IMG/VR virus record: IMGVR_UViG_3300034072_002212
Coordinates: 30,417-94,416 of that record
Strand: one strand, 5' to 3'
Origin: a virus
Taxonomy: Duplodnaviria > Heunggongvirae > Uroviricota > Caudoviricetes
Length of the DNA stretch: 64,000 bases
Shown: positions 4,287 to 37,887 of the stretch, in pieces
Layout of the letters: every line of letters starts with the position of its first letter
Position numbering within the stretch: position 1 is the first letter of the stretch
Made by a program: the position numbers and the translations under genes
Notes under the pieces: model-generated
What the model was told of the DNA's origin: nothing
Databases searched by the model: none
What the model saw: the letters and a program-made list of their open reading frames with translations, nothing else

Positions 4287-4311
4287 AGACAGTCTTTCCT
4301 TTCAAATATAC

Positions 4312-4338: not shown

Positions 4339-4345
4339 GGGTCAA

Positions 4346-5602
4346 TTACTCATTCACCGCCTTGGGGTCAAAAACGACCAGCGGCTCACTCTTTCCTTCG
4401 ATGACATCCTTGGTCACACGTACGGTAGTCGCTCCCTGCTCCTTGAGGTCAGGAAGTTCATACTGGACCTTGATCAGACGCTTCTCAATCACGCTGCGGA
4501 GACCGCGGGCGCCTGTCTTACGGGTGATGGCATCCTTGGCAACTGCGCGAAGAGCTTCTTCGTCAAACTCCAGTGTGACGTTCTCCATCTGGAACATCTT
4601 CTGGAACTGCTTGACGAGGCTGTTCTTGGGCTCGGTGAGAACCGTAACCAGCTGAGTTTCGTCGAGTTCTTCCAAGTGCGTGATGACCGGGAGACGACCA
4701 ACCAGCTCAGGAATCAGACCGAACTTGGTGAGATCTTCAGGCTCAACAGTGGCAAGAAGCTTGCTGTTGTCCTTCTTCTCAGCTTCGCTCATCACACTGG
4801 CACCAAAGCCCATGCTGCCCTTGCCCTTGTTCTGACGCTTTGCGATGATCTCGTCCAGACCAACGAATGCGCCACCAACAATGAACAGGATGTTCTTGGT
4901 ATTGACCACAGCCATCTCCGCGTTGGGATGCTTGCGGTTACCAGTGACTGGGACGCGGACTTCGCTACCCTCAATGATCTTCAGCAGAGCCTGCTGAACA
5001 CCTTCACCCGAGACGTCACGGGAAATGCTCGCCGAGTCGCCGCGCTTGGCCTTCTTATCTACCTCGTCGAGGTAGATGATACCACGCTCTGCCTTGGCAA
5101 CATCATTGTCGCAGACCTGCAGGAGGCGCGTGATGATGGTCTCCACGTCATCGCCCACATAACCCGCCTCAGTGAGGCTCGTAGCGTCAGCGATGGTGAA
5201 GGGAACGTCCAGCAGCTTTGCGATGCTGCGGGCCATCAGGGTCTTACCGGAGCCCGTAGGGCCCAGCAGGAGGATGTTGGACTTCTCGAGCTCAACATCA
5301 TCGACAACCGGATTGGCGAGACGCTTATAGTGATTGTGGACGGCCACACTCATGACCATCTTGGCTGCGTCCTGACCAATAACATACTGATCCAGGAACT
5401 CACGAATCTGTCGTGGGCTGGGAATACCACCATCCTTGAGAGACATCTTGGTCTCTGCGTTGGTGTCTTCCTTGAGAATGTCCGCGCAAAGCTGGACGCA
5501 ATCGTTACAGATGAAAACATCTGGACCGGCGATCAATTTCTGGACTGCTTCCTGTGGCTTTCCGCAGAAGCTGCAGGTCAGATTTTTCTTCTTGTCACTC
5601 AT
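4346..5602 (-). CDS. clpX: ATP-dependent Clp protease ATP-binding subunit ClpX
   Basis: N-terminal C4 zinc finger (CSFCGK...CNDCV), Walker A GPTGSGKT and 418 aa length are all typical of ClpX. Confidence 0.9.
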
Positions 5603-5635
5603 TTACTCGACCTCAGAGTTCTCGGATACATCCGA

Positions 5636-5642
5636 TATTTAG
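5636..5642 (-). promoter_or_regulatory. T4-like late-promoter-like motif (CTAAATAT on the minus strand) ~30 nt upstream of the clpX start
   Basis: Minus strand reads CACCCACTAAATATCGG...GAGGTCGAGTAAATG. The same CTAAATA core recurs upstream of at least 8 other minus-strand genes. Confidence 0.4.
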
Positions 5643-8308: not shown

Positions 8309-10180
8309 ATGTCCAACAAGATTAAGAAACTCACAGATTATCAGCACGCCAGGCTCCGAACTGAGATGTACCTGGGTAGCCGTGCTCCACACACTCAGAC
8401 GATTCTCCAGATTGTGGATGGAAAGCCACAGCCGGTTGAGATGACATGGGTGCCAGCTCTCTACACGGCCTTTCGTGAGGTGCTCGACAACGCCCTCGAC
8501 GAGGTTATCGGCCATGGACATGGCAGCAAGATTAAGGTAACCTACGACGCAACGACACGCGAAATGAGCGTTGAAGACGACGGTCGTGGTATTCCTATCG
8601 CGTATGACGACGCTCATAAGATGCACCTCGCTACACTCGTTATGACAGAGGCACGAGCTGGTCGTAACTTCGAGGATCGCGGTGAGGTCGCAGGCACTAA
8701 CGGTATCGGTGCGAGCGTTGTGAACTTCTGCTCCGAGTATTTCAAGCTGGACATTCAGAAGGATGGTGAGCGTTTCCAGCAAGAGTTCACGCAGGGCAAC
8801 GCGGTCTTTGGTGATGAGCTACAGTTTGGCAAGGTCAAGCTGACCAAGAAGCAGGGACCCAACGGCACCAAGGTCACGTTCAAGCTTTCCAGCGAAGTCT
8901 TCCCAGATCTCAATCTCCCAGAAGAGTTCATTCGCTCGCGTGTCACTGAGGTGGCAATCTGTAATCCGCTGATCAAGATCTTCTACAACGGTGAGCAGAT
9001 CAAGGTGAAGCCTCGCCCAGAGCAGACTCTCTTCCCCGGTCAGAAGCCAATGGCCCTAGAGATCAAGGACGAGAACTTCCGTAGCCGCTTCTGGATTGTT
9101 CCCAACTGGACCACAGGTGGCGATCACGTCCACACCATTGTGAATAACATTCCTGCTTTCAACGGCGGCGTTCACATCGACACTTTCCGTCGCCTGTTCT
9201 ATGGTAACCTGCTGACTGCGCTGGAGAAGGAGAGCAAGCGTCGCAAGCTCAGCCCGAACCGCTCGGACGTCACTGAGGGTGTTCTGATCTACAACATCAC
9301 GAACATGCACGGTCCTAACTTCGACAGCCAGAGTAAGACTCGACTGATTAACGAAGAAGTGGGCAAGATCCTCAAGAACGATCTCGAGAATCCAGAGCTC
9401 TACAAGGACTTCATCAAGAAGAATCGCGACTGGATTGAGGAAATCTACAAGCGTTGTGCTGAGCGCACGATGAAGAAGGATGCCGCTGACATTGCGAAGG
9501 CGGCCAAGAAGAACCTTCGCAACAAGGTTCCTCGCCTCATGGACGCAACTGGTGGTGATCGCAGCAAGTGCATTCTCTTCCTAGCAGAGGGTGAATCGGC
9601 CATCAGCGGCATGGGTTCGGTTCGTGATCCAGACCTCCACGGTGGTCTTGGCATGAAGGGTAAGGTTCTCAACGTCAACGGCGAAATGCCCAAGAAAGTC
9701 ATTGAGAACAAGGAGCTCGCAGACATCATGAATTGTCTGGGGCTTGTCATTGGTCAGAAGGCCAAGCTTGAGGACCTGCGCTATGGCAAGGTCTATATCG
9801 CGCACGACATGGACCCTGACGGTCTGAACATCGGTGCGCTCTTGATCAACTTCTTCCACACCTACTGGCCAGAGTTGTTCGAGAATCCCACCAAGCCATT
9901 CGTTCACATTTTCCGCACTCCGTTCATCATCGCTGAGCGTGGCAAGTCCAGAAAGTACTGGTATGCCCATAACTATGGTGAATTCAAGCCGGAGGATTAC
10001 AGCGGCTGGACGATTACCCGCGCTAAGGGTCTGGGTACGCTGACTCGTGAAGACTGGGAATATTCGCTTGCGAACCCTGAGGTCTATCCGGTTATCGACG
10101 ATGGTAAGATGGGTGAGACTCTCGACTTGATCTTCAACAGCAAGCGTTCTGATGACCGCAAGGAATGGATTGGTCTATGA
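8309..10180 (+). CDS. DNA topoisomerase II large subunit (T4 gp39/gp60 fused type; GyrB-like ATPase + TOPRIM)
   Basis: GHKL ATPase motifs (EVLDNALDE, TNGIGASVVN), TOPRIM LFLAEGESA, 623 aa. Confidence 0.85.
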   Translation: MSNKIKKLTDYQHARLRTEMYLGSRAPHTQTILQIVDGKPQPVEMTWVPALYTAFREVLDNALDEVIGHGHGSKIKVTYDATTREMSVEDDGRGIPIAYDDAHKMHLATLVMTEARAGRNFEDRGEVAGTNGIGASVVNFCSEYFKLDIQKDGERFQQEFTQGNAVFGDELQFGKVKLTKKQGPNGTKVTFKLSSEVFPDLNLPEEFIRSRVTEVAICNPLIKIFYNGEQIKVKPRPEQTLFPGQKPMALEIKDENFRSRFWIVPNWTTGGDHVHTIVNNIPAFNGGVHIDTFRRLFYGNLLTALEKESKRRKLSPNRSDVTEGVLIYNITNMHGPNFDSQSKTRLINEEVGKILKNDLENPELYKDFIKKNRDWIEEIYKRCAERTMKKDAADIAKAAKKNLRNKVPRLMDATGGDRSKCILFLAEGESAISGMGSVRDPDLHGGLGMKGKVLNVNGEMPKKVIENKELADIMNCLGLVIGQKAKLEDLRYGKVYIAHDMDPDGLNIGALLINFFHTYWPELFENPTKPFVHIFRTPFIIAERGKSRKYWYAHNYGEFKPEDYSGWTITRAKGLGTLTREDWEYSLANPEVYPVIDDGKMGETLDLIFNSKRSDDRKEWIGL

Positions 10181-10422
10181 TGGAAGAAATGTGGTTCTAC
10201 AGTGGACCAATTCATCTGAACTCGTTCAATGGAGACTTTGGAGAGTGGCATGCCACTCTCCAAACTGATGATCCAACTGCGGTAGTCCAATGGGTTACTG
10301 CCAATTCTACTGGACTCTGGTGTGTTCGCCAGTCTCCCAGTGAGGGTAGGTGGCTCATTGAAATCAAGATGAAGGAAGCTTCTGATCTGAACCTGTTCAA
10401 GCAGGTTTACAAGCTCACCTAA
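10177..10422 (+). CDS. FKLTWGG-family small protein, divergent member 1 of the tandem array
   Basis: Starts at ATGATGG overlapping the topoisomerase stop. Has the W-box (VQWVTANS) and a degenerate C-terminus (EASDLNLFKQVYKLT). Confidence 0.4.
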   Translation: MMEEMWFYSGPIHLNSFNGDFGEWHATLQTDDPTAVVQWVTANSTGLWCVRQSPSEGRWLIEIKMKEASDLNLFKQVYKLT

Positions 10423-10658
10423 TGACTGTTCGCATTGTGAACATTGGTTTGAATCGACTACCACCGCACGACCATGTGGTGGTAGTTCGAACCGATGAAC
10501 CCGAAGAGTTTATGGATTGGATCAAGGTTGCTTGTCCCAATTATAGCAATGTTCGCCATCCCGGTGGACGAGACGACCGCTATCCTGATCTCCAAACCTG
10601 CATCTGTCTCGATCTCAACGATCGAGATCTCATGCTTCTCAAGCTGAGGTGGAAGTGA
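10422..10658 (+). CDS. FKLTWGG-family small protein, member 2
   Basis: TAATG overlap with member 1. W-box FMDWIKVAC. C-terminus DRDLMLLKLRWK. Confidence 0.45.
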   Translation: MTVRIVNIGLNRLPPHDHVVVVRTDEPEEFMDWIKVACPNYSNVRHPGGRDDRYPDLQTCICLDLNDRDLMLLKLRWK

Positions 10659-10936
10659 CCTACAGCTGGTTTTCTATCTGGTACACACCAGAGGATGACG
10701 ACACAATCGCCTACATGACTCAGGACCGCATAGCTGAGATTGGCGGCCTAAAGCCTCATACCATCACAAGCGCAACCCTGATCGCACCCTATGTGAATAG
10801 CGGAATCGCTATCTTGAGTCGATGGTGCCGTCAAAATTGCAAATTGCCCGGCACACCAGTTAACGTCCGCGGACGCACTGGTTGGGCCTTCAAAAACTCT
10901 GAGGATGCCCTACTGTTCAAACTGACGTGGGGTTAA
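10649..10936 (+). CDS. FKLTWGG-family small protein, member 3
   Basis: W-box LSRWCRQNC. C-terminus WAFKNSEDALLFKLTWG. GTG start overlaps the previous stop. Confidence 0.6.
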   Translation: MEVTYSWFSIWYTPEDDDTIAYMTQDRIAEIGGLKPHTITSATLIAPYVNSGIAILSRWCRQNCKLPGTPVNVRGRTGWAFKNSEDALLFKLTWG

Positions 10937-10937
10937 G

Positions 10938-11408
10938 ATGTCCTTCAAAGTCACAAAGACAACTGTAAATGCGCCTTCGCGCAAGCTGAACGTCACGTGG
11001 AATCCTAGCGAGCTGAAGCCTCTTGAGATCACTGAAAAGGGTAGCGAATACCTGATCACCAATGCGCTCAAGCGTTGGATGCTTCAGCAGCATGGCACCC
11101 GAGTGGCTGTCTACACTCGTGATTTCGAAGCCATGACCGCTTGGTGCCAGGACAACATCAAGCAGCACTTTGACTGGTGCGAAGATGAGGTCCTAATGAC
11201 TAAGGAACGCCTCCAGAGCGACACTCTTTTCGCCAAGGAAGGCAAGATGTCGCAAGAATACATGGAGACATTATTCGTCAACAGCATCGCACGTCAGGTC
11301 AATCGGGAAGCCGCTGAGAGTGAAGGTCTGCCCTTTGCTCACGCGCACTTCTGGTTCGAAGACGCCAACGAAGCCATGATGTTCAAACTCACGTGGGGTG
11401 GCTGCTAA
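10938..11408 (+). CDS. FKLTWGG-family protein, member 4 (156 aa)
   Basis: W-box MTAWCQDNI. C-terminus HFWFEDANEAMMFKLTWGGC. ATG 2 nt after the previous TAA. Confidence 0.6.
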   Translation: MSFKVTKTTVNAPSRKLNVTWNPSELKPLEITEKGSEYLITNALKRWMLQQHGTRVAVYTRDFEAMTAWCQDNIKQHFDWCEDEVLMTKERLQSDTLFAKEGKMSQEYMETLFVNSIARQVNREAAESEGLPFAHAHFWFEDANEAMMFKLTWGGC

Positions 11409-11416
11409 GTAGGTGA

Positions 11417-11713
11417 ATGAATCTCACCTACACTGAACACAAAGACTGGACCCTCCCTCATTGGATGGACCTGCAGCTAGACCATAAAGACGACAACCTC
11501 ATGGCTATGATGGATGTCAATCAGTGGTGCGCCGATCAGCTGGGAGAGCTAGGCAAGCTCTGGGGTTATGAACGTCAGCAGCTCACTCTCCCGCATCCTC
11601 AGGGCCTCAACCCCGTGAGGATCAAACTCCATTACACCAAAATACAATACTCTTGGCGCTTCAAGAACAAGGAAGATGCCATGATGTTTAAGCTTCGTTG
11701 GGGTGGTGTGTGA
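11417..11713 (+). CDS. FKLTWGG-family small protein, member 5
   Basis: W-box VNQWCADQL. C-terminus SWRFKNKEDAMMFKLRWGGV. Confidence 0.6.
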   Translation: MNLTYTEHKDWTLPHWMDLQLDHKDDNLMAMMDVNQWCADQLGELGKLWGYERQQLTLPHPQGLNPVRIKLHYTKIQYSWRFKNKEDAMMFKLRWGGV

Positions 11714-11988
11714 TTCAATTCCGCTTCAACCGTGATGGCATCGGGCGACTCATGGTCGAGTTTGGTATGAAGTGGATCCTTCTAGACTATGACACCTACA
11801 ATCGTCGAGAGAAGGAGTGGGAGCTCAATCTCACCAGAGTTATTGACGAGCTGAACATTTGGTGTAAGGATCATGGCATAGCCAATTATGCCACTGGCTT
11901 CACTCAGATCGAACTTTGTATCACCTTTGGTGTTCGTGCCGAGGCGATGCTCTTTAAGCTGAGGTGGCATGATGCCTGCACCGCCTGA
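11698..11988 (+). CDS. FKLTWGG-family small protein, member 6
   Basis: W-box LNIWCKDHG. C-terminus FGVRAEAMLFKLRWHD. The start overlaps member 5 (TTG at 11698 or GTG at 11707). Confidence 0.5.
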   Translation: MGWCVIQFRFNRDGIGRLMVEFGMKWILLDYDTYNRREKEWELNLTRVIDELNIWCKDHGIANYATGFTQIELCITFGVRAEAMLFKLRWHDACTA

Positions 11989-12175
11989 AATGGGTCACCT
12001 GAAGTTTGATCCGCCTATCCGTCCCTATACTGAAGAGTATAAGAGGGCATGGTTTCTGCTGAAGGAAATGAACCTCACCAAAGAGGTCGTGTTCAGCTAC
12101 AAGGGCAACATGGATCTTCACGGTCTGACATTCCCTACCAAGGAGCAGGCCATGATGTTTAGATTGAGGTTGTAA
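11969..12175 (+). CDS. FKLTWGG-family small protein, member 7 (short)
   Basis: C-terminus TFPTKEQAMMFRLRL. Overlaps member 6. Confidence 0.4.
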   Translation: MMPAPPEMGHLKFDPPIRPYTEEYKRAWFLLKEMNLTKEVVFSYKGNMDLHGLTFPTKEQAMMFRLRL

Positions 12176-12426
12176 TGGGAACAGTTCACCGCAACGGCAC
12201 GCCGCCAAAGCGTCTACCTTTCAAGAAGGTCATGACGTTCAGCGACATGGACTTCAACGAGGATATCATCGCAAAATGGGCTCGAGAGCACCTCGAGAAC
12301 CACATGCAGTATGACTACATCGTGTTCAACGGCACCAAGGGCAAGCTCAACAGGTCGATTGAATTCACCGCGTGGTTCCAGACTCGTATTGATGCGGAAC
12401 GATTCGAGAGGGCTTGGTTTAAGTGA
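12175..12426 (+). CDS. FKLTWGG-family small protein, member 8 (degenerate C-terminus)
   Basis: TAATG overlap. C-terminus FQTRIDAERFERAWFK keeps the DA..F...W spacing. Confidence 0.45.
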   Translation: MGTVHRNGTPPKRLPFKKVMTFSDMDFNEDIIAKWAREHLENHMQYDYIVFNGTKGKLNRSIEFTAWFQTRIDAERFERAWFK

Positions 12427-12719
12427 ACCTCCGCATTTACATTGTTGATCGGGTGGATCAGGTTCGTTGGTATTTGGATCCAAAGACCTGCACCTCCTTC
12501 TGTCTCCAGCTCAAGGACAATCATCATGAGATTCGTTCCTGGCTAGAGCAGATGACCAAAGATGTCGTTGTGATAAGTGGCCAAGGTATCATGCCTCGCA
12601 TGGGTGTCAATGACCATCCCAACAACGTCTACCAGTCACTTTCGCGCGAACAGTTCAAGCTCTATTTTGCGAGCGAGGACGATGCTATGCTTTTCAAACT
12701 CACATGGGGTGGCCAATGA
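12423..12719 (+). CDS. FKLTWGG-family small protein, member 9
   Basis: W-box IRSWLEQMT. C-terminus LYFASEDDAMLFKLTWGGQ. Confidence 0.6.
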   Translation: MNLRIYIVDRVDQVRWYLDPKTCTSFCLQLKDNHHEIRSWLEQMTKDVVVISGQGIMPRMGVNDHPNNVYQSLSREQFKLYFASEDDAMLFKLTWGGQ

Positions 12720-12901
12720 GCTTTACCTGCAAGCTCTGGAAGATTGTTCTAGGGCACGACATGGCGGACGATAACACCGATCTAACTTTCTGGGGTTACC
12801 ACTTCAGCGAAGGCAAGGCGCGTGACGCTGCTCTCAATTGGGCAGAGGGTCAGAAACCAGGCAGCGTGATCACGATCAAAAGCGTTGACTTGATCAAGTA
12901 A
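12704..12901 (+). CDS. Small ORF at the array position with only weak family resemblance
   Basis: FSEGKARDAALNWAEG weakly echoes the motif but is not C-terminal. Overlaps member 9. May be spurious or a decayed copy. Confidence 0.3.
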   Translation: MGWPMSFTCKLWKIVLGHDMADDNTDLTFWGYHFSEGKARDAALNWAEGQKPGSVITIKSVDLIK

Positions 12902-12983
12902 GCTGCTATTCAGGACACATGACCAACCGTAAGGCCCTTCACAGCGAGCACTAGGAAGCAATCACGCTTCCTGGAGAATCGCT

Positions 12984-13229
12984 ATGTCAAATTGGACGCC
13001 GCCCCGCGGCTACAAGGGCCTTCGCACTGGCTACCGTCAGGCCGTGCGAGTCAAACTTCGGGTTCCTGAAGACTACCACGCTCGTGTGGCATTCTTCGCC
13101 CGTCGTTCCGAAATGGAAGATTGGTGCGAAGAAAATTGCCATCACTCTTGGAGTCACGTTGATGGCTTCTTTTGGTTTGACAAAACCAGCGAGGCTGTGC
13201 TCTTTAAGATGATCTTTGGAGGCCGCTAA
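12984..13229 (+). CDS. FKLTWGG-family small protein, member 11
   Basis: W-box MEDWCEENC. C-terminus WFDKTSEAVLFKMIFGGR. Preceded by a GGAAGC-aatcac-GCTTCC hairpin and a GGAGAA ribosome-binding site. Confidence 0.55.
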   Translation: MSNWTPPRGYKGLRTGYRQAVRVKLRVPEDYHARVAFFARRSEMEDWCEENCHHSWSHVDGFFWFDKTSEAVLFKMIFGGR

Positions 13230-13574
13230 TTGCTAGATCCCAACAATCCTCAGTTCCAAAGCTTCAAGATCACGCAGGGATTCAAAGTCACGATCCCAGC
13301 GCCCAAGCATCCAGGTAATGGACGAGTCAATGGCTTCTACAAGCATGGCTTTCCTCTTGAGGTCAAAGAGTGGCTTGATACCAATGTGGGTGAAACGTGT
13401 GGCAACCACCTTTGGGAACTAGAGGGCCAAGGGGACTGGCTTCACACGGGGGCCAAGCAAGGATCGTTTAAGAACGTCGAAGGTCACAATACCCGACGTT
13501 CCATGTTGGACTTCTATTTCCGAGACAAACGCAAAGCTGCCTTGTTTTTGGTGAGGTGGCACGGCTACCTCTAA
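13230..13574 (+). CDS. FKLTWGG-family protein, member 12
   Basis: Starts 1 nt after the previous stop. C-terminus FRDKRKAALFLVRWHGYL. Confidence 0.5.
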   Translation: MLDPNNPQFQSFKITQGFKVTIPAPKHPGNGRVNGFYKHGFPLEVKEWLDTNVGETCGNHLWELEGQGDWLHTGAKQGSFKNVEGHNTRRSMLDFYFRDKRKAALFLVRWHGYL

Positions 13575-13641: not shown

Positions 13642-14994
13642 ATGACCCAAGAAAATAGCTCAAACTATATCCTAGACACTTCCCGCGAATATTCCATCTA
13701 CGTTTGTGAATCCCGCGCAATTCCCAAGGTCGCAGACGGCCTCAAGGACGCGCAGCGCAAGGCGCTTTGGCTTGTTAAGAGCCGATCGGACAAGATCAAG
13801 ACGGTGTCCCTCGCAGGCGAGATGATCTCCTCGGGACTCTATCTGCACGGTGACCAGTCAGCAGCTGGTGCTATCTCGATGCTGGCCGCTCCCTACGTCA
13901 ACAACGTGCCCTTGCTTGAGGGTATTGGTTCGTTCGGCACGCGCGTTGCGCCAGTCGACGGTATCGGTGCTCCTCGTTACACCTACGTCAAGCGCGGCAA
14001 AGCTGCTCAGGAACTCATGTTCCCCGACATGGACATTGTTCCGGTCAAGGAGAACTATGACGGGTCAACGATTGAGCCTCAGCACTTCCTCCCACTTATC
14101 CCTACGGTGCTCTTAAACGGCGTCTCAGGCATCGCAGTGGGTTGGAGCACCGAGATCCTACCTAGGTCCTTCAAGGCCCTCGTTGATGCCACGCTGAACG
14201 TCCTAGACGGCAAAAAGCTGAAGCGCATTGCTCCCAACTACGAGCTCTACAACGTGGGCGTCAGCCACCTCGAGGACAACTCGTGGGAGTTTCAGGGCAA
14301 GCTGGAAATCGTCGACACGTCGACCATTAAGATCACTGAGCTGCCACCCGAACTGACCCTCGAGAAGTTCAAGGAACGCCTGAACACGTTTGAAGACGAG
14401 AACAAGATCTCGACCTATATCGACCGTTCCACTGATACCATTGACATCACGATCAAGATGGCTCGTGGCTCGGTCAAGGGTTGGAGCGTCACTCGCGCCA
14501 TCGACTACTTCAAGCTCAAGCAGAAGAAGACCGAGCGCATCGTTGTCATCGACTGGAACGGCTCTTCGATCCGCCAGTATGAGAGCGCAGAGAAGCTTAT
14601 TGAGGACTTCGTTGCGTGGCGCTTGGGTTGGTATGAGACCCGCTACCAGAACAAGGTCAACAAGGACGACTACGAGCTAGGCTTCTGGAAGGGCGTCAAG
14701 CTTTGCTTCGACGACAAGCTGCCAGCACGCCTGGGCACAATCAAGAGTCGCACTGAACTGGATGCTGATGTCCAGGCTGTCACTGCCAAGCTCAAGCTGG
14801 ACGACAAGCGCGTTGATCGCATCGTGAACTTGCCGGCTCACCGTTGGACCAAGGATGCCTATGCTGATGTTCTCCAGAAGATCAAGGATCTGGAAGCAAA
14901 CATCAAGGAATACAAGGCCATCCTCAAGGATCCTGAAAGGCGAAAGGCCATCTACCGGGAAGAGGTAGAGGCCTTGAAGAAGGTTAAGTTCTAA
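13642..14994 (+). CDS. DNA topoisomerase II medium subunit (T4 gp52-like, GyrA-like breakage-reunion domain)
   Basis: IPKVADGLKDAQRKALW (compare IPDVRDGLKPVQRRILY), active-site tyrosine context APRYTYV, 450 aa. Confidence 0.85.
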   Translation: MTQENSSNYILDTSREYSIYVCESRAIPKVADGLKDAQRKALWLVKSRSDKIKTVSLAGEMISSGLYLHGDQSAAGAISMLAAPYVNNVPLLEGIGSFGTRVAPVDGIGAPRYTYVKRGKAAQELMFPDMDIVPVKENYDGSTIEPQHFLPLIPTVLLNGVSGIAVGWSTEILPRSFKALVDATLNVLDGKKLKRIAPNYELYNVGVSHLEDNSWEFQGKLEIVDTSTIKITELPPELTLEKFKERLNTFEDENKISTYIDRSTDTIDITIKMARGSVKGWSVTRAIDYFKLKQKKTERIVVIDWNGSSIRQYESAEKLIEDFVAWRLGWYETRYQNKVNKDDYELGFWKGVKLCFDDKLPARLGTIKSRTELDADVQAVTAKLKLDDKRVDRIVNLPAHRWTKDAYADVLQKIKDLEANIKEYKAILKDPERRKAIYREEVEALKKVKF

Positions 14995-17741: not shown

Positions 17742-18287
17742 TTGAAATTATTTGGAGCAGTAGTGCTCCTCTTGTCGCTCTTGCTAACGCCAGACCAAGC
17801 CGCAGCGGCGACACCTACGAGATACCAAAATCTGCATACTGCGGTTCGAAATCTGGGCACACTCATCCCTGAGGTCCAGAATGCCAATCGAACCGATCAA
17901 GACGAGATGTTGTGCTTGGCACTAAACATCTATCATGAGATTCGCGGGGGGAGTACGCGACACCAGTGGGCAGTGGCTTTTGTCACTATGAACAGGACGA
18001 AAAGGGCAGTCTTCAATGCCAAGACGATCTGCCAAGTAGTCTGGGCAAGGGGGCAATTTTCATGGACCGTATGGAATTTGAGGGCACAGTTACCGCGTGA
18101 ACGAGGCGCATGGGCAGAATCACAGAGAAAAGCTGCCTTGCTCGTTTCCGGTGAGAAGATGAATGACCCTACGAATGGCTCAACGCATTTCTACCAGGCA
18201 CGGTTGAATCCTGGTTGGGCCCGACGCCTCGTTTCGAGGATTCGTATTGAGAACCACACGTTCGCAAGGTTGCCTGGCAGCAACTAG
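17742..18287 (+). CDS. Secreted cell-wall hydrolase, SleB/CwlJ (Hydrolase_2) family; candidate lysin
   Basis: Signal peptide MKLFGAVVLLLSLLLTPDQAAA. MLCLALNIYHEIRGG...QWAVAFVTMNR...ICQVVWARGQFSW matches the SleB-family core. Confidence 0.7.
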   Translation: MKLFGAVVLLLSLLLTPDQAAAATPTRYQNLHTAVRNLGTLIPEVQNANRTDQDEMLCLALNIYHEIRGGSTRHQWAVAFVTMNRTKRAVFNAKTICQVVWARGQFSWTVWNLRAQLPRERGAWAESQRKAALLVSGEKMNDPTNGSTHFYQARLNPGWARRLVSRIRIENHTFARLPGSN

Positions 18288-18324: not shown

Positions 18325-18356
18325 GACCCCCGGCTTTGCCGGGGGTCTTTGTTTCT
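18325..18356. terminator. Bidirectional rho-independent terminator between the SleB-like gene and queD
   Basis: GACCCCCGGC-tttg-CCGGGGGTC followed by TTTGTTTCT on plus; T-rich on minus as well. Confidence 0.7.
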
Positions 18357-18372: not shown

Positions 18373-18912
18373 TTAGCCGTAATAAACAGCCGAGTTCGCA
18401 CCATGCTCAAAGCACTCAACAGACACGAGGCGCACGTCTGGGTTCACATTGTAGCGACCCAGCTTGCCGGCCTTCATCTCTTCCAGCATCTCGACGCTCT
18501 TCTCGTAAACGAGCTTCGCGGTCAGCTCACAGCCAACGCCGGGAACGATGCGGAGATTACAGACGCGGCCTTCCTCATAGAGACCAACTTCCTTCTCAGT
18601 GGGCACGCCATTGAGTTCTGGGTTCAGCGAGAACGCTGCTAGGGTCTTGAAGGTTTCGAGTGCGGGATCATCCTCGGCCACCAGGATCGTGTGGTCGAAC
18701 ATATGGTCGAGGAAGTTCTTGATGGGCTTCATACCACCAAAGTCAAAGCACCAGTTCTTCTCGTCCAGAGTCTCAGACTCCCAGACAAACTTGAAACCCA
18801 GGCTATAGCCGTGGAGCGTTGAACAGTGCGAGTGATTGGCCTTCCACTGACGGAAGCAGCAAGAGAGACCACGGTCGGTGCCGTAGGTCTTGGTCGATTG
18901 GAATTTAGGCAT
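18373..18912 (-). CDS. queD: 6-pyruvoyl-tetrahydropterin synthase / QueD-family protein
   Basis: FRQWKANHSHCSTLHGYSLGF and DFGGMKPIKNFLDHMFDHTIL parallel the QueD zinc and catalytic motifs (AAHRL..C..LHGHS; DFAELK...LDHHYL). Confidence 0.6.
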   Translation of the reverse strand: MPKFQSTKTYGTDRGLSCCFRQWKANHSHCSTLHGYSLGFKFVWESETLDEKNWCFDFGGMKPIKNFLDHMFDHTILVAEDDPALETFKTLAAFSLNPELNGVPTEKEVGLYEEGRVCNLRIVPGVGCELTAKLVYEKSVEMLEEMKAGKLGRYNVNPDVRLVSVECFEHGANSAVYYG

Positions 18913-18969: not shown

Positions 18970-19419
18970 TTGCTATTTATCTACGATATTCTGGTTATTG
19001 CCCGCAATATAGACATCACCAGAATGTCACTCTATATGGATCACATGACCCGAGGACTCACTAAGGAGGATAGCGAGCTATGGACTCGCGTAACCAAGGA
19101 CGTTAGGCCCCTTGGCAAAGCCCCTGTGAGCTCCTCTGAGGGTCAGAGCTACCCGAGAGCACCCGAACCCCGTAGCGCACCCTATAACCCACGAGTGGAC
19201 CTCCACGGGGTAACAATCCATGAAGCATGGGGTGTGGTCAACGACCACATCTATCATGGGGTACAGAACGGCTATAAGAAGCTGCTCATTATCACTGGCC
19301 GCTCAGGCCAGATCAACCAAGAACTTCCGCGCTGGCTTGAGCGCAACCCGCACGTCAGATCGGTTACACAGATGCCAAACGGTGGTTCATGGGAAATAGC
19401 AATCAAGCCCGTTACGTAG
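18970..19419 (+). CDS. Smr (small MutS-related) domain protein
   Basis: VDLHGVTIHEAWGVVNDHIY...LLIITGRSGQ...LPRWLERNPHVRSV matches the Smr core. The true start may be an internal Met (about 19024). Confidence 0.55.
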   Translation: MLFIYDILVIARNIDITRMSLYMDHMTRGLTKEDSELWTRVTKDVRPLGKAPVSSSEGQSYPRAPEPRSAPYNPRVDLHGVTIHEAWGVVNDHIYHGVQNGYKKLLIITGRSGQINQELPRWLERNPHVRSVTQMPNGGSWEIAIKPVT

Positions 19420-19653
19420 ACGCTGACAAACTCAAGATGGCGCTTTATTCGCTCCATCCCGCAGTTGGAGCATCATATTCTAGCGGGCTGTTGGACCAGC
19501 AGGTCAATCAGCTGATTCTCAACGCTCTCACGAACTCCTTTGAGTCGTTCAAGCATCAGCTCATAAATGCCATTGATCAGGCGTCAGTGCCCTACGACAA
19601 GTGTATGCTTTGCGTCCAGCGAGACTCCTGCATCCCGCCTGATCCCCGACTGC

Positions 19654-20013
19654 CTAGTTGAGCCGGATCTCGATGTCACCACCCTCGGTCTTGAGATATT
19701 TCATAACCTCGAGGCCATAATCAGTGAACGTGTAGAGCTCACGCTTACCCGTGATGGTCGTTGAATCCCAGACATAATCCCAAGAGTATTCGATCAGACC
19801 CACGTCCTGAAGACGCTTGAGGTCTTTGACCTGGAAGCCCTTGCACAACTTCGCCACTTCACTGACAGTCAGAACCGTCTTCTCGCCCGGTTCAGCGGCC
19901 AGCTTCTTCATCACAAGCTTGGAGTTCATAGCCTTGAGGAAGGTGTGAGCCGGCGACCCTTCGCAGATCACCGCATAGTTGTGGCCGTCGATAACTTCGA
20001 TGTCGTACATCAC
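19654..20013 (-). CDS. Hypothetical protein (119 aa), last gene of the cca–family operon
   Basis: ORF only. No family motif. Confidence 0.4.
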   Translation of the reverse strand: MMYDIEVIDGHNYAVICEGSPAHTFLKAMNSKLVMKKLAAEPGEKTVLTVSEVAKLCKGFQVKDLKRLQDVGLIEYSWDYVWDSTTITGKRELYTFTDYGLEVMKYLKTEGGDIEIRLN

Positions 20014-20018
20014 CTACC

Positions 20019-20321
20019 TCAGAACTTCTGGTGCGCCTTACAAGCAAGTTCGCCACCGAAAGTCAACTTGAAACGCACCGCATCTGAACGGTTTTCAAAA
20101 GACAGGTTGTGTGGTGCCATGGTATAATCCACCGAATAGCAACCTGTGGTGTGGTTGTTCAGCCAGTCATAGTCAGCATCCGTGAGTGGACGCGTCAGTC
20201 CAACACGGTGGGTATAATACTTGAGGGACTGGCGATGCGGATGGCGAATGCTCTCGAGACGGGCCTTGTTCTTGCCCGTGAATTGGAGGATCTTGGCCTC
20301 GATCTGCTTGAGCTTCTTCAT
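20019..20321 (-). CDS. FKLTWGG-family small protein
   Basis: W-box DYDWLNNH. C-terminus FENRSDAVRFKLTFGGE. Confidence 0.55.
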   Translation of the reverse strand: MKKLKQIEAKILQFTGKNKARLESIRHPHRQSLKYYTHRVGLTRPLTDADYDWLNNHTTGCYSVDYTMAPHNLSFENRSDAVRFKLTFGGELACKAHQKF

Positions 20322-20581
20322 AGGAAAGACAGTTTGAACATTGCCGCATGGGCGGGATTGGAAAAGAAGATGCGTGTTCCTCTGTCCCTATTTACGCTAT
20401 GCCAGTTGTTGGCAATGATGTAATGGTCCTTGTCACCACTGTAGGGTTCGCTGTCGGGGTGGCGGAACTGCTGGATTCCCACAAAGGTCTCCAACCAACG
20501 CTCAGCTTCCTCGGTTAGCTTGACACTACCGCTCTGCTCCCAAACGCGATCGTTGAGTTGAGGAACCTCAATCGGTGTCAC
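20318..20581 (-). CDS. FKLTWGG-family small protein
   Basis: C-terminus FFSNPAHAAMFKLSFL. Overlapping start/stop with both neighbours. Confidence 0.5.
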   Translation of the reverse strand: MTPIEVPQLNDRVWEQSGSVKLTEEAERWLETFVGIQQFRHPDSEPYSGDKDHYIIANNWHSVNRDRGTRIFFSNPAHAAMFKLSFL

Positions 20582-20865
20582 GCAAAGGTCAGCTTGAACA
20601 GAGCCGCAAGGTCTGCGCGATCCTTGGGAAAGAAGAACGTTGTGATGTCCGGCTCGTCTGAACTGTTGCTCGACAACACAGTGAGACCGTGGCGCTTGTA
20701 GAAGTCCTCAATCTCGGGACCTGCGACCCACTGGAAAGTGTCCTCCCCAGTGGATCGCTTCGTGAAGTGCGCCTTGCCCTTGATGTCTACACCCATGGAC
20801 TCAGCTTGCTTCTGTTTGATGCTCTCCCAGAGAGCTTCATAGGCCGAATGGCGAGGATCGGTCAT
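20578..20865 (-). CDS. FKLTWGG-family small protein
   Basis: W-box DTFQWVAGP. C-terminus FFPKDRADLAALFKLTFA. ATG overlaps the cca stop (TAATG). Confidence 0.5.
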   Translation of the reverse strand: MTDPRHSAYEALWESIKQKQAESMGVDIKGKAHFTKRSTGEDTFQWVAGPEIEDFYKRHGLTVLSSNSSDEPDITTFFFPKDRADLAALFKLTFA

Positions 20866-21998
20866 TACTCGATCTCCAGCAGTTCTTCCTTGGTCTTCGT
20901 GAAGCGCGAGAACACCCAGGCATTCTCCAGCTTACGCAGACGCTGCCCCATAGCCGGCCCCGGCTTCATCCCCGAAGCCAGCAGGTCCTTCCCCGTTACC
21001 GGGAACGTCGGGACCACAAAGTTGCGGGCGTATTCAGCCAGCATCGGTTCCCCGGCGATCTCCAGCATGGACACGACATGATCCAGAGGGAACTTGTCGC
21101 GGGTCAGGTAGATCTCGACCTTCTCCTCGGTCCAGTTCACGCACCGGTTGCGGATCAGGTTGCGGACCTTGGCCTCTTCGGCCGAGCTCAGCTTCCAGAA
21201 CTGGAAGAACTTTTCCTCGTCGGTACTGGCCACCAGCGTCGACAGTGCCGCGACCGCATCATCCGAACGCGCCAGCTCAACAGGGTTGAACCGGAAGACT
21301 CCCAGCGAACGGTTGACGCGCGTCTTGAACATCGCGTCGACCACCCGAACCCGAGCCGGCATCGAGGGATCCAGCAGCTTTGACATTTCCAGCCAGAACC
21401 GCTCGACCGACACGACGTTCAGCTTGTCCAGGGTCTCGCCCACGCTGAACAGGTCCAGCGTGTCGTCGTCCATGGTCGCATCGAAGCGCGCCGCAAAGCG
21501 GAAGTAGCGCAGGATACGCAGGTAGTCCTCCTGGATTCGCAGCTCTGCGATCCCGACGAAACGGACGACCTTGTTCTTCAGGTCATCGCGTCCGCCAAAG
21601 TAATCGTAGACGTTGCCCTCGAAGTCCATCGACATTGCGTTGATGGTCAGGTCGCGCCGCTCTGCGTCCAGCTCGAAGGAGCGGGTGAACTCCACGGTCG
21701 CATGACGCCCGTCGGTCTCTGCGTCGATCCGCAGCGTGGTGACCTCGAACGGCTCCTTGTTGACCACGATGGTCGCCGTGCCGTGTGCGATGCCGGTTTC
21801 GATGAAGCCGAACTTGTTGGCCGTTGCGATCTCGCGCATCTCTTCCGGCGTTGCGTCGGTGCAGAAGTCCACGTCCTTGGGGACCACGCCCAGGATCGCG
21901 TCACGGACACAGCCACCCACGAAGCGGATCTCGAAGCCGGCGGCCTTGAAGGCATCGCCCAGCTTGCGCGTTTCCGTGGTCATCAGCTTGTCCAGCAC
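20865..21998 (-). CDS. cca: tRNA nucleotidyltransferase (CCA-adding enzyme) / poly(A) polymerase family
   Basis: Head-domain motifs GGCVRDAILG...DVDF and 377 aa length. Confidence 0.8.
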   Translation of the reverse strand: MLDKLMTTETRKLGDAFKAAGFEIRFVGGCVRDAILGVVPKDVDFCTDATPEEMREIATANKFGFIETGIAHGTATIVVNKEPFEVTTLRIDAETDGRHATVEFTRSFELDAERRDLTINAMSMDFEGNVYDYFGGRDDLKNKVVRFVGIAELRIQEDYLRILRYFRFAARFDATMDDDTLDLFSVGETLDKLNVVSVERFWLEMSKLLDPSMPARVRVVDAMFKTRVNRSLGVFRFNPVELARSDDAVAALSTLVASTDEEKFFQFWKLSSAEEAKVRNLIRNRCVNWTEEKVEIYLTRDKFPLDHVVSMLEIAGEPMLAEYARNFVVPTFPVTGKDLLASGMKPGPAMGQRLRKLENAWVFSRFTKTKEELLEIE

Positions 21999-22057
21999 GT
22001 CGATCTCCTCTTTGTTACAAGGCGAGATCTAACACCAATTTGGTGAGTGTCAACCAG

Positions 22058-22633
22058 TCAGGATAGATCTTCTGGGTCTATGGATGAGTTGGCCACCTTT
22101 TTGGCAAACCGCTCATCCTTTTTGCGTTGGATCTCAGCAAAATGCTCTCTGATCTCATTGACCACGACATTCCATTCAGGCTTCACATAGAGCAAAATGG
22201 CGATCTTCCAGATAAAGGCCGCACGAGCATCTGCTCGCTTCTCTTTGACTTTGACCTTGCGCTGCTGGAGTGAAGCCGCCTTCATCTTCACGTAGACCCG
22301 CCATGCCTCGGGATCACGCCGCAGCTTGAGGAACTTGTTGAACTTCATGTCCCCACGCAGGTTATTACACCCTGAGCAGCTCATGACGAGATTGCTCAGG
22401 TGGTCAGTGCCACCTTTGCCCTGACACAGAACATGCTCCAACGTGGCGCGACGATTGTTGGAAATTGGTGTGTCGCCGGGTAACCAAGTCTGCTTGCCAC
22501 AGAAATAGCAGAGACCGCCTTGCTTGTGGAACAGCTGAGTGGTCTTCTTGCGCCGGGCCAACGTGAACTTGGTGTACCACCACTCCTTGTCCTCAGGAGT
22601 GTGCCACTTCTTACGAACCGCGCGGCCTACCAC
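22058..22633 (-). CDS. HNH endonuclease
   Basis: CYFCGK...LEHVLCQGKGGTDHLSNLVMSCSGCNNLRG is an HNH motif with zinc-binding cysteines. The 277-aa ORF has a Ser-rich low-complexity N-terminus that looks non-coding. A GTG start at 22633 is proposed. Confidence 0.5.
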   Translation of the reverse strand: MVGRAVRKKWHTPEDKEWWYTKFTLARRKKTTQLFHKQGGLCYFCGKQTWLPGDTPISNNRRATLEHVLCQGKGGTDHLSNLVMSCSGCNNLRGDMKFNKFLKLRRDPEAWRVYVKMKAASLQQRKVKVKEKRADARAAFIWKIAILLYVKPEWNVVVNEIREHFAEIQRKKDERFAKKVANSSIDPEDLS

Positions 22634-22847
22634 CTTTGTGTAGCTGGTCCCATCCGAGGAACGACCAGGCCTTGCGCTTGGCACTGTGGCAAAGTCGAAG
22701 GGGAATGACAAAGATGAGAGCGAGGAGGAAACCGATGGTAGCGAGGATGCGACCAATGAAGCCACCGGTGCCCTTGACACTGAATATGACGATGAGCAGG
22801 ATGAAGAGGAGCAGATCCCCTCGCTTGCTTCGGTTACTTGACCACAT
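22611..22847 (-). CDS. Small two-TM membrane protein (78 aa)
   Basis: MWSSNRSKRGDLLLFILLIVIFSVKGTGGFIGRILATIGFLLALIFVIPL has two strongly hydrophobic helices. It lies in the frame overlapping the HNH ORF's Ser-rich extension. Confidence 0.4.
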   Translation of the reverse strand: MWSSNRSKRGDLLLFILLIVIFSVKGTGGFIGRILATIGFLLALIFVIPLRLCHSAKRKAWSFLGWDQLHKGGRPRGS

Positions 22848-22877
22848 TGCGGCGCCTCCATAATTTCGCGCAATAGG

Positions 22878-23096
22878 TTACTCGCCACCAAATGTCAACT
22901 TGAACAATAGGGCGTGCTGCTTTTCCCGGAAGGCGAATGGGATTTTGTCCTGGGTCTGCCCACCGAAGCGGAAGTCCAAACCAATCTTCAGCTTGTGGTC
23001 AGCCATCCATGTAAAGATGGCGTTGATCGAGTTGCGTGAGGAAACGTGGACCTCATGCCAGTTCAGGAGACTAACGATAGCCATCGAACAATCCAT
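22878..23096 (-). CDS. FKLTWGG-family small protein, solo copy
   Basis: W-box IFTWMADHK. C-terminus FAFREKQHALLFKLTFGGE. Confidence 0.5.
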   Translation of the reverse strand: MDCSMAIVSLLNWHEVHVSSRNSINAIFTWMADHKLKIGLDFRFGGQTQDKIPFAFREKQHALLFKLTFGGE

Positions 23097-23811
23097 CTAT
23101 CTCGTCGTCGCTGTAGCCCTCTTCGAACCACCGCGCTCTGGACTCTTCCTCACTGATGAGATCCTCAAGATCTTCATCATCCTCAGGATCATCATCTAAT
23201 GCCGGGTTATAAGCCCAGCGAGCGTCAGCAGCGTCAGTGAACTTGAAGTCACGCTCCAAGGCACTACAGGTCAAACGGTAGCATGTCTGACCCTGAGAAT
23301 CACTGTCATAGACCTGCTCAGTTGCGTAGATCCCATAGGACGCAAGGCCTAGAAGCAGGCAGTTGATGTTGAACCGGCCTTTGTTGGGATAGACCAGCAG
23401 TTCAAAGGTCCACCCATCCCCATCAACGTCCTCTTCCGTGTAGTCATCATGACGAAACTTGGTTGAGATGTTGGCTTCTGCGACCCGGTCGATTGTGACC
23501 TTTTCATAGGCCGTGGGAGTGCGGGTGTCTATGAGGATATTGAGAGGACAGGCATAGACCTCGAATTGCTCACTGTTGATCCACGTCATCAACTGCTCAA
23601 TGGACGTGAATGCCTGGACCTTGTCCCGATAGACTTGATATTGGGTAATCGCATGGCGGAGAACTCGATAGGCTCGGGCGCTCTTTCCCCACGAACCTAG
23701 GTTACGCATCTCCCAAAAGAGATTGCGATAGTATTCCCAGACAGGAGACTTCCCGACCTCTCCGGGCTGGAGAGGCGGGATTCTTTCATTGTTGATGAGG
23801 CTCCGGATCAA
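23071..23811 (-). CDS. Hypothetical protein with acidic C-terminus (246 aa)
   Basis: ORF with a D/E-rich tail. Confidence 0.45.
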   Translation of the reverse strand: MIRSLINNERIPPLQPGEVGKSPVWEYYRNLFWEMRNLGSWGKSARAYRVLRHAITQYQVYRDKVQAFTSIEQLMTWINSEQFEVYACPLNILIDTRTPTAYEKVTIDRVAEANISTKFRHDDYTEEDVDGDGWTFELLVYPNKGRFNINCLLLGLASYGIYATEQVYDSDSQGQTCYRLTCSALERDFKFTDAADARWAYNPALDDDPEDDEDLEDLISEEESRARWFEEGYSDDEIDGLFDGYR

Positions 23812-24953
23812 AGCACCTTGACCCGAGTGAGGGTGGTGGACTTCATGCCCTTGAACTCATTGTGGTCCTTGACCGTGCCACGGATCTTGACCGACTTGCC
23901 GAGGAAGGGACGGAGGACAGCCTTGCTGGCGAACCACGTGTAGCGGTTGCCATGCGCGTCGCGCATCTTGCACAAGTAGTTGAACTCGCGGTCCCTGACC
24001 TCATCAACGGTCACCTCGATCTCTAGCTTCTGCCCCTTGACGCCCTGGAACGTGCTGTTGGCGCTTCGCGGCTGATTCTTGGCATAATAGCTGCCCACGA
24101 TCGAAGCCGCAATGCCAATGCTGCGGGGCTCAATGGCCTCGCTCATCGCGATCACGTGGATGTTGTGCTCATAGTCGTTGAGCTCACCCTCGAGGCCCTG
24201 TGCCCAGTCGAGAGCAGCCGCAGCGAGGTTCTTTGCGTTGTCGCTGACCAACGGAAGCCGATCATGCATCCGCGACCACACGTCATCGGCCGTGCTATTC
24301 AGGCCAGTCTCGTTGGACTTCTTGCGCGAGGTCCAGCCGCGCTCCAGAATGCTCTCCGCACAAAGCTGGAGGAACATCTCCGTGCCGATCCAGCGATGAT
24401 CGATCAGTGCTGACCCGTCCTCGCCCTTGTTCCATGCGATGCGACGCAGTTCACCCAGGCTGGCGACCATCTCTGCCAGCTTGGCCCACTTGTCAGCATC
24501 ACCATGGCCCAGGAAGTCCTTGAGGCACGAGCTACCGACCTGCTTGAACTCGTTGAGTTCCTCGTTGAAGACCACGAACGTGTCGCGCCGACGACGCTTG
24601 TGACCGCAATGGTCACAAACAGGATCGCTGGTCCGATATGCTTCGGGAAGGTCGCGGGTATCCGTGGTGCGAACAATGTTCCCGGCTTCGTTAGCGTGGT
24701 CGATGCGAGCCACGAACTCCCACCCGGCCAGCTTGGGCTCGGGATAGGCCACGAAGACCTCCATGATCTTCTGGTTGAAGAACTTGCTGTCCTTGGACTC
24801 TTCGAAGTGGAAGCCGACCACGGTCATGAAGAGACGCTCACCGGTGAGCTTCTTGGCGCGCTTGCCCAGCCGCTCCATCTGAGCCTTGAACCAATCAAAG
24901 CCAGCTGCCGGAATGTCGAGCGTCTTACCTTCGGCCATTGTCGATCTCCTCAT
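23808..24953 (-). CDS. Hypothetical protein (381 aa) with an internal CxxC...basic patch
   Basis: CDHCGHKRRRRD lies mid-protein. Otherwise unrecognised. Confidence 0.45.
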   Translation of the reverse strand: MRRSTMAEGKTLDIPAAGFDWFKAQMERLGKRAKKLTGERLFMTVVGFHFEESKDSKFFNQKIMEVFVAYPEPKLAGWEFVARIDHANEAGNIVRTTDTRDLPEAYRTSDPVCDHCGHKRRRRDTFVVFNEELNEFKQVGSSCLKDFLGHGDADKWAKLAEMVASLGELRRIAWNKGEDGSALIDHRWIGTEMFLQLCAESILERGWTSRKKSNETGLNSTADDVWSRMHDRLPLVSDNAKNLAAAALDWAQGLEGELNDYEHNIHVIAMSEAIEPRSIGIAASIVGSYYAKNQPRSANSTFQGVKGQKLEIEVTVDEVRDREFNYLCKMRDAHGNRYTWFASKAVLRPFLGKSVKIRGTVKDHNEFKGMKSTTLTRVKVL

Positions 24954-35418: not shown

Positions 35419-35607
35419 TTATCCTACGAGTTCTTCGTCAAATTGGAGACGGAAACGAAAGGCATCGTCAATGCTCAGAAAGTCAACCTGCACGGCATCA
35501 TTCGTGGGAATCAACACATAACCCTTGGTCGCTTCCTCGTCGAGCCAAGCTTCGACCTTTTCCTTCGACTCGGGTGCGACACGCAGAATCCAAGAACTTG
35601 CGACCAT
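35419..35607 (-). CDS. Possible short FKLTWGG-family member (62 aa)
   Basis: C-terminus LSIDDAFRFRLQFDEE resembles the family signature. Short, so low confidence. Confidence 0.3.
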   Translation of the reverse strand: MVASSWILRVAPESKEKVEAWLDEEATKGYVLIPTNDAVQVDFLSIDDAFRFRLQFDEELVG

Positions 35608-35676
35608 TACTCTTACCTCAACTGTCTTGCTAGGACCTGATTATTAACTGTTTAACCAGCTAGGAATCAATATGTT

Positions 35677-37880: not shown

Positions 37881-37887
37881 CCCCGCC

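Follow-up and report, generated by a model that had tools for sequence, protein, structure and literature searches.

Three small minus-strand genes, here called A, B, and C (20019 to 20865), directly follow the gene for a CCA-adding enzyme (cca) in a 64,000-nucleotide (nt) stretch of a Caudoviricetes genome (IMG/VR record IMGVR_UViG_3300034072_002212, positions 30,417 to 94,416; this whole stretch is the window below). The three genes belong to a protein family that is large, previously undescribed, and virus-restricted. The slot behind cca is one of several slots for this family that are conserved from the window phage to Sinorhizobium phage Phosso, and what it contains changes through gain, loss, and recombination. 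The reading we favor, with moderate confidence, is that of a diversifying accessory multigene family occupying conserved slots, whose products would serve as binding modules and not as dedicated cofactors of the CCA enzyme. Copies are joined into “gene trains” through overlapping start and stop codons (NTGA or TAATG).

The family was defined by a multiple alignment (A3) and its hidden Markov model (HMM), with an E value of <0.01 as the cutoff for membership in the window. A first motif HMM, seeded with seven obvious copies including A, B, and C, had recovered 10 to 12 open reading frames (ORFs) of the window; the A3 model finds 16 members in the 64 kb. A, B, and C are all in the A3 training alignment, but 4 of the 16 window members are outside it and were found nonetheless, and orthologs from relatives that are outside the training set score similarly to A, B, and C. 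An earlier note on this DNA, which had described the family as dispersed with about 17 copies, was thus close in its estimate. The main array consists of 11 consecutive plus-strand family genes (10165 to 13574) between the gene for the large subunit of topoisomerase II (8309 to 10180) and that for a gp52-like subunit (13642 to 14994); its genes, all recognized by the family HMM, lie at 10165 to 10422, 10422 to 10658, 10649 to 10936, 10938 to 11408, 11417 to 11713, 11698 to 11988, 11969 to 12175, 12175 to 12426, 12423 to 12719, 12984 to 13229, and 13230 to 13574. Besides A, B, and C, there are two single members, both on the minus strand. One, of 72 amino acids (aa) and ending in ...ALLFKLTFGGE (22878 to 23096; HMM E = 1.6e-10), precedes an HNH gene and belongs to the minus-strand gene run that includes cca; its slot is also filled in the related contigs L001, L004, and L002 (with two copies in L002), and the protein is 100% identical in L004. 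The other is isolated and ends in ...FLSIDDAFRFRLQFDE... (35419 to 35640 in stop-to-stop coordinates; HMM E = 2.3e-5; outside the training alignment).

In the ORF list and the sequence, the minus-strand region from 19.6 to 22.1 kb is a chain without gaps that runs from cca (20865 to 21998; 377 aa, GTG start) through A, B, and C to a 119-aa gene. Gene A (20578 to 20865) starts with ATG and encodes 95 aa ending in ...FFPKDRADLAALFKLTFA (family HMM E = 4.8e-4), B (20318 to 20581) starts with GTG and encodes 87 aa ending in ...FFSNPAHAAMFKLSFL (E = 4.8e-6), and C (20019 to 20321) encodes 100 aa ending in ...FENRSDAVRFKLTFGGELACKAHQKF (E = 5.7e-20). The cca/A junction is TAATG, in which the ATG of A shares one base with the TAA stop codon of cca; the A/B junction is GTGA and the B/C junction is ATGA, each with a 4-nt overlap. 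The C termini quoted in the earlier note match these ORFs exactly, and its description of three genuine family genes chained without interruption to cca, with the ATG of A overlapping the cca stop, is confirmed. Its 4-nt overlaps between the family genes are correct; at cca/A the overlap is 1 nt, and B starts with GTG. Gene A has a GGAG Shine-Dalgarno sequence within the 3' end of cca, and none is evident for B or C. The last gene of the chain (19654 to 20013, minus strand) starts 5 nt past the stop codon of C, has its own GAGG Shine-Dalgarno sequence, and is not a family member (family HMM score of −1.6 bits; no Pfam match above threshold); its orthologs of 120 to 124 aa lie directly 3' of the C-type gene in L004 and L006.

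Family members are about 60 to 110 aa long; of the 369 proteins recovered by the profile search described below, nearly all have 50 to 110 aa and the shared domain at the C terminus, and some are two-domain tandems. Three features recur: a helix with an invariant tryptophan (xxW[CL]xx[NH]), a strand with aromatic residues (x-F-x-F), and, at the end, the helix [DE]A-x-x-F-K-L-x-[WF](GG). They read W53, LSF, and DAVRFKLTF in C; W29, IFF, and HAAMFKLSF in B; and W46, FFF, and LAALFKLTF in A, which is the most divergent of the three. In an alignment of 130 sequences, W53 is invariant, and F75, A81, F84, and L86 are >90% conserved. The codons of the motif vary synonymously between copies, indicating that it is the protein, rather than a DNA site, that is conserved. 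A, B, and C share 47 to 77% identity with their orthologs in related contigs, and in every ortholog pair the proportion of nonsynonymous differences (pN) is much lower than that of synonymous differences (pS); the ratio of nonsynonymous to synonymous substitution rates (dN/dS) is 0.10 to 0.35 wherever dS is unsaturated (B, 0.10 to 0.35; C, 0.12 to 0.27). B is 77% identical to its ortholog in L004 and 51% identical to that in L002, and the C orthologs P0003, P0005, P0007, P0009, P0012, and P0162 are 54 to 77% identical, whereas paralogs share only 15 to 30% identity. By these sequence measures, A, B, and C are real, selected protein genes, and their motif is no chance match.

The core of the family is predicted to be a two-layer α/β unit. 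AlphaFold2, run with a 107-sequence alignment, modeled C with a predicted local distance difference test (pLDDT) score of 84.5 and a predicted template modeling (pTM) score of 0.72, and B with a pLDDT of 75.5. The C model contains helices (H) and strands (E) in the order H4-12, H17-25, E38-42, H48-57 (with W53), E62-65, E72-75, and H78-88, and the B model contains E2-6, H24-33, E54-56, E60-65, E68-73, and H76-86; the models, which cover B and C, share the core β1-α1(Trp)-β2-β3-α2(motif). In these AlphaFold models, the α1 tryptophan packs against the C-terminal helix DAxxFKLx(W/F)(GG), and the loops between core elements vary widely in length and sequence. The arrangement bears on a different explanation, in which the shared C terminus is a linear signal (a degron or a packaging, secretion, or docking tag) appended to unrelated small proteins that have no common fold. 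The conserved block does stand at, or a few residues from, the C terminus in nearly all members, and the sequence upstream of it is highly divergent. However, the motif is placed in helix α2, packed into the core with a pLDDT of ~88 to 92, the Trp helix and the F-x-F strand covary with it throughout the family, it is followed by 10 further residues in C-type members, and it is also internal in two-domain proteins, so that a linear signal appears highly improbable.

Of the polar residues, only the helix-capping D/E and the lysine of FKL are conserved. Isoelectric points (pI) range from 4.3 to 9.8 with a median of 6.2; A and B are acidic, and C is basic. C is extended at both ends, by a basic helical hairpin at the N terminus (pI 9.7) and by the short tail GGxLxCxxH at the C terminus. 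The C-type subfamily shows a conserved H-P-H (residues 27 to 29), a P-H-N (around residue 70), and the tail L-x-C-x-x-H, which together might make up a metal site; a few C-type members (P0015, P0019, P0024, and P0040) lack the C/H tail. Zinc binding through the common WCxxNC motif was considered as a family-wide role and rejected, since A, B, and C lack these cysteines.

Database searches place no described family close to this one. An exhaustive profile search of 1.84 billion cluster representatives recovered 369 family proteins at E ≤ 1e-3. Scans of the window proteins and 130 family members against Pfam, PHROGs, NCBIfam, and PADLOC produced nothing beyond noise, in the form of isolated hits to single members; the PADLOC defense models contributed just five single-member matches (E of 0.002 to 0.008), by which the family does not qualify as a defense protein family. 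A sequence profile search of the PDB gave a best E value of at least 0.3 (Rab9), and Foldseek against BFVD retrieved only uncharacterized proteins of uncultured Caudovirales, Agrobacterium phage Atu_ph07, and CcrPW, at E values of at least 0.025. The family has no RRM match in Pfam and is not assigned to the RRM family, as defined by such a match, RNP1 and RNP2 aromatic motifs on β3 and β1, and a four-stranded sheet; likewise, it is not assigned to the ACT domain, for which the defining features are a β-α-β-β-α-β fold, a loop that binds a ligand, and an ACT match in Pfam. Neither a nucleotide search with 19000 to 24000 nor tblastn with protein C and the family consensus matched cultured phages, and Phosso was reached only via cca. 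The family was not retrieved by searching the literature for the motif and for Phosso or by looking for paralog families in the Atu_ph07 and AP-J-162 papers, and no informative partner was found among domain fusions in 40 larger family proteins. One of these 40 (alignment A7) matches the Pfam model of the T4 major capsid protein (Gp23; E = 1.2e-11), which may be a true fusion or a gene-calling artifact.

A degenerate DNA pattern for the canonical motif AMLFKLTWG was found at 27 IMG/VR loci but in only 1 of 185,579 bacterial and archaeal species genomes, that of Novosphingobium guangzhouense, indicating that the family is essentially virus-restricted. In the Novosphingobium sequence (NZ_LYMM01000033.1; locus L048, 2034 to 3307), two family members lie about 600 bp apart, and this locus may be a prophage.

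In jumbo phages related to Phosso (about 290 to 480 kb), the family has expanded greatly. The parent metagenome contig of the window (Joint Genome Institute) is 468,011 bp long, and the gene order cca-Smr-PTPS-L12-like-topoisomerase genes is common to the window, Phosso, and several metagenomic contigs of 288 to 481 kb. The window also encodes, at 37577 to 37920 on the minus strand, a two-piece (permuted) transfer-messenger RNA (tmRNA) of alphaproteobacterial type (Rfam RF01849, 84.3 bits; RF04321, 84.7 bits), which is absent from the ARAGORN output; this tmRNA suggests an alphaproteobacterial host, and Phosso-like jumbo phages probably infect alphaproteobacteria. A scan of the whole assembled Phosso genome found 57 family members in 27 groups, compared with ~673 annotated protein genes (about 8%), and one array has 15 members at 2.8 to 14 kb. 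IMG/VR loci of 10 to 13 kb carry 23 members each in L015 and L030 and 30 in L035; the run in L030, from a 416-kb contig, spans about 7 kb, and further arrays come from 462- and 465-kb contigs. The first 21 kb of Phosso (L038, 1 to 21000) are dense in hypothetical genes of about 90 to 100 aa, about 16 of which are family members; scattered among them are single tRNA genes, a fragment of histidyl-tRNA synthetase, and a gene for peptidyl-tRNA hydrolase.

The topoisomerase slot, with 11 copies in the window, holds 3 in Phosso (377243 to 378116), where it is flanked by genes for topoisomerase IV subunit A and a topoisomerase large subunit. Orthology between individual window and Phosso members is hinted at weakly: B matches Phosso 370319 to 370678 at 27% identity over 100 aa, and there is one match between two members of the topoisomerase slot. 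Outside this phage group, an unrelated 92-kb phage contig (L009) carries a seven-gene family train at 3705 to 5641, between Ogg-HhH-like and QueD-like genes. A GTP cyclohydrolase I gene lies further downstream of the L009 train, and a PTPS/QueD-like gene is also present about 1.1 kb beyond the window train and in Phosso.

The earlier note had asked whether relatives keep cca followed by family members, and seven of them do (L001, L002, L004/L006, L022, L049, L050, and Phosso). This order, conserved in eight phages with the window included and reaching Phosso despite a cca identity of 39%, speaks for an explanation that competes with ours, in which the cca-proximal proteins assist the CCA-adding enzyme, as accessory subunits or as partners that bind RNA, and form with it a module for tRNA 3'-end repair, kept at a fixed ratio by translational coupling. 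The explanation also draws on the end of the train, where a C-type gene is the last family gene in six metagenomic relatives, on the basic character of protein C, and on the position of the Phosso array between cca and a polynucleotide kinase gene. Against it stands the variable interior of the train. Compared with A, B, and C in the window, cca is followed in L004 by B and C; in L001 by an A-like gene (the A ortholog, 47% identical), an uncalled member, and C; and in L002 by B, two others, and C, with A thus absent in two relatives. In L049 there are four small genes and then C (the family HMM recognizes three of the five, C included), and in L050 there are five called small genes and an uncalled 250-nt stretch and then C (the HMM recognizes six, C included, and an A ortholog is present). 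In Phosso, five small genes precede the polynucleotide kinase gene, with no C-type gene. The content of the cca train therefore ranges from about two to six or more family genes, the junctions in L049 and L050 all being NTGA and the gene ends in Phosso overlapping the next start. Moreover, Atu_ph07 has cca but no family gene after it.

The cca gene itself also appears to have a history partly separate from that of the genes behind it. Nucleotide identity between the window and L004 is 91% over 24998 to 20867 (the cca stop) but 70% from 20581 onward, and this drop, together with the missing A gene in L004, points to a recombination or indel breakpoint at the boundary between cca and the train, exactly at the cca stop. 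By composition, cca is an outlier (GC content of 0.616 and third-position GC content [GC3] of 0.85) compared with genes A, B, and C (GC3 of 0.61 to 0.70) and the surrounding genes (0.61 to 0.72), and its dS against relatives (0.47 to 0.71) is about threefold below that of the adjacent family genes (at least 1.4). Strong codon bias could account for this composition and low dS, as could a more recent transfer of cca, either from phage to phage or from a host. By sequence, the predicted product is a bona fide class II tRNA nucleotidyltransferase with predicted CCA-adding activity; it has both the PF01743 head (5.2e-35, 121 bits; cutoff, 23) and the C-terminal tRNA_NucTran2_2 domain (PF13735; 1.6e-9, 38.4 bits; cutoff, 27) above the Pfam cutoffs, and it matches phrog_2244 at 1.7e-59. 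Its two closest relatives are the enzymes of Atu_ph07 (44% identity) and Phosso (39%). Both of these are longer at the C terminus than the window enzyme, by about 98 aa in Phosso (L008, 4001 to 5569; ending in ...HFLAFFKSKDSAMIAKL...) and by about 45 to 55 aa in Atu_ph07 (L007, 4001 to 5266; ending in ...YKFIVNEKDAVNMIV...), and both segments loosely resemble the strand-plus-helix motif of the family. For Phosso, a single-sequence test gave 6.8 bits (E = 3e-4) and BLASTP gave E = 0.19; this resemblance, which would suit an enzyme partnership, is not significant, and a fusion of the family domain to the Phosso enzyme was rejected and is not relied on.

Beyond the cca slot, the tie to tRNA maturation or repair that the earlier note had drawn from this gene context is unsupported for the family as a whole, since most copies lie elsewhere and tRNA genes are not enriched around them. 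Only 3 of the 16 window copies and 4 to 5 of the 57 Phosso copies are next to cca. Of the 57 Phosso members, seven have a tRNA gene within 1 kb, compared with 6.7 expected at random positions (P = 0.5), and the tRNA-dense zone of Phosso at 410 to 452 kb contains 45 tRNAs and a single family member. Other arrays occur in unrelated contexts: they separate the two topoisomerase II subunit genes, precede an HNH gene, or adjoin 7-deazaguanine genes in the unrelated phage. With A and B acidic and RRM similarity lacking in Pfam, we consider a dedicated partnership with the CCA enzyme unlikely.

Variation of this kind among close relatives, in both copy number and content, would also be expected if the small genes were selfish or mobile cassettes that bring the phage little benefit and spread by recombination at the 3' motif or the NTGA junction or together with homing endonucleases. 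A family member lies directly upstream of an HNH gene in four phages, an HNH_3 gene is located two genes downstream of the L004 train, an extra member in L002 is 80% nucleotide-identical over 56 nt to a gene of the window's cluster 1, and the slots are placed between conserved core genes. Nevertheless, the orthologs are under purifying selection at the protein level, and the low identity of the paralogs argues that the duplications are old and the copies maintained. In addition, family proteins contain no nuclease, integrase, or transposase domain, slot occupancy is conserved as far as Phosso, and the synonymous variation of the motif codons leaves no conserved DNA site, so that we regard selfish cassettes as decidedly improbable. 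As to the HNH gene in the window (ORF 22058 to 22891), a 78-aa hydrophobic ORF (22611 to 22847, minus strand), apparently with two transmembrane helices as judged by eye, overlaps its serine-rich N-terminal part in another frame. The gene callers for L001 and L004 report this 78-aa ORF and a shorter HNH gene of 191 aa, which leaves the true HNH start uncertain.

The layout of the chain is that of an operon: the genes lie on the same strand with overlaps of 1, 4, and 4 nt followed by a 5-nt gap, and no terminator- or promoter-like site is found inside. The earlier note had taken the three genes to be cotranscribed with cca, and a generic scan of the minus strand from 21998 to 19654 detected no separate promoter- or terminator-like site between cca and the small genes. 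A candidate sigma-70-like promoter lies in the 59-nt gap upstream of cca (22026 to 22055, minus strand) and consists of GGTTGACA and TAGATC separated by a 16-nt spacer, the −10 hexamer being directly preceded by TGT. Its blocks GGTTGAC and TGGTG(T/C)TAG are invariant in the window, L004, L001, and L002, despite a different upstream gene in L002, and the element occurs once in the window compared with 0.04 occurrences expected. The conserved element and the lack of internal terminator- or promoter-like sites make it plausible, though unproven, that cca, A, B, C, and the 119-aa gene are cotranscribed from 22026 to 22055. The spacer contains a perfect palindrome, CACCAA-A-TTGGTG, which is kept in L004 and L001 but not in L002 and could be an operator. 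The missing Shine-Dalgarno sequences of B and C suggest translational coupling. Downstream of the chain, a strong bidirectional terminator-like hairpin (18325 to 18347; 10-bp stem with 9 G-C pairs) is present between a convergent pair of genes, a Hydrolase_2-like gene (17742 to 18287, plus strand) and the PTPS/QueD-like gene (18373 to 18912, minus strand).

Under the favored reading of an accessory multigene family, the cca train would be transcribed together with cca from the conserved sigma-70-like promoter, and trains in general would be expressed by read-through from the promoters of neighboring early or middle genes. B and C would be translated through termination-reinitiation coupling. 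The proteins would be diversifying binding modules, with a stable scaffold, variable loops, and no conserved catalytic residues, and may take accessory roles early in infection, for instance, in host takeover or counterdefense.

Several points weigh against this proposal. Cotranscription is deduced from sequence features, and the candidate promoter scored below the threshold of the generic promoter scan. The proposed role in binding, host takeover, or counterdefense is inferred only from scaffold-loop anatomy, the turnover of paralogs, and analogy. The AlphaFold confidence for B is moderate, the HMM score of A is weak, and fold support comes from the B and C models. Finally, the bracket of cca and a C-type gene across the eight phages, together with the polynucleotide kinase gene that follows the array in Phosso, could mean that the cca-proximal subfamilies do have a functional connection here. 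A broader version may be imagined, in which the repertoire is the phage's main tool against host factors or defenses while a C- and A-type subset has been recruited as partners of the CCA enzyme, possibly fused to it in Phosso and Atu_ph07, and protects or repairs tRNA 3' ends under attack; we think this rather unlikely.

Accessory expansions of paralogs are of a known kind in giant phages. Bacillus phage G has a zinc-ribbon family of roughly 35 copies, a lineage-specific expansion in a jumbo phage (Iyer et al. 2021, PMC7824862). As in phage G, one small domain is present here in dozens of copies in a very large phage, and a regulatory or binding role is suggested. Unlike the zinc ribbons, the present family has a predicted α/β sandwich fold, 57 copies in Phosso, coupled trains, and slots conserved between distant relatives. 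The family is mentioned neither in that survey (PMC7824862) nor in the Atu_ph07 and AP-J-162 papers. The gene sets for tRNA repair in phages (Iyer et al. 2021, section 3.4.9, PMC7824862) comprise a CCA-adding enzyme, polynucleotide kinase, and RNA ligases. The train attached to cca, with a polynucleotide kinase gene next to it in Phosso, resembles such sets; however, no described system has such small proteins, and the family lies mostly away from these genes. Domains with a ferredoxin-like α/β sandwich (ACT, RRM, and HMA) are also among the closest known systems.

Large eukaryotic DNA viruses likewise carry multigene families, such as MGF110, MGF360, and MGF505 of African swine fever virus (ASFV) and the host-range gene arrays of poxviruses. 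These share with the present family tandem divergent paralogs, purifying selection, and gain and loss between strains. The family described here differs in that its members are phage genes, much smaller, and of an unrelated fold, and its arrays are internal and dispersed rather than terminal. In T4-like phages, hyperplastic regions hold small early ORFs, which are lodged between core genes that are conserved, for example, genes 39, 60, and 52 for topoisomerase. Here too, small accessory genes of variable content, apparently cotranscribed, lie between replication genes; whereas the T4-like fillers are mostly unrelated ORFans, one homologous family fills many slots in the Phosso-like phages.

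Thus, although expansions of this type are known, the family itself is undescribed, and its specific link to cca is weak. If the favored reading is true, it would add a new protein family, absent from Pfam, PHROGs, and NCBIfam, that makes up a sizeable share of the coding capacity in a clade of ~470-kb jumbo phages with a cultured and tractable member, Phosso. It would also correct a case of guilt by association, since the adjacency to cca is real and conserved and yet marks one slot among many. A single scaffold with variable loops, set in conserved slots, would offer a concrete way into jumbo-phage genes that lack annotation.

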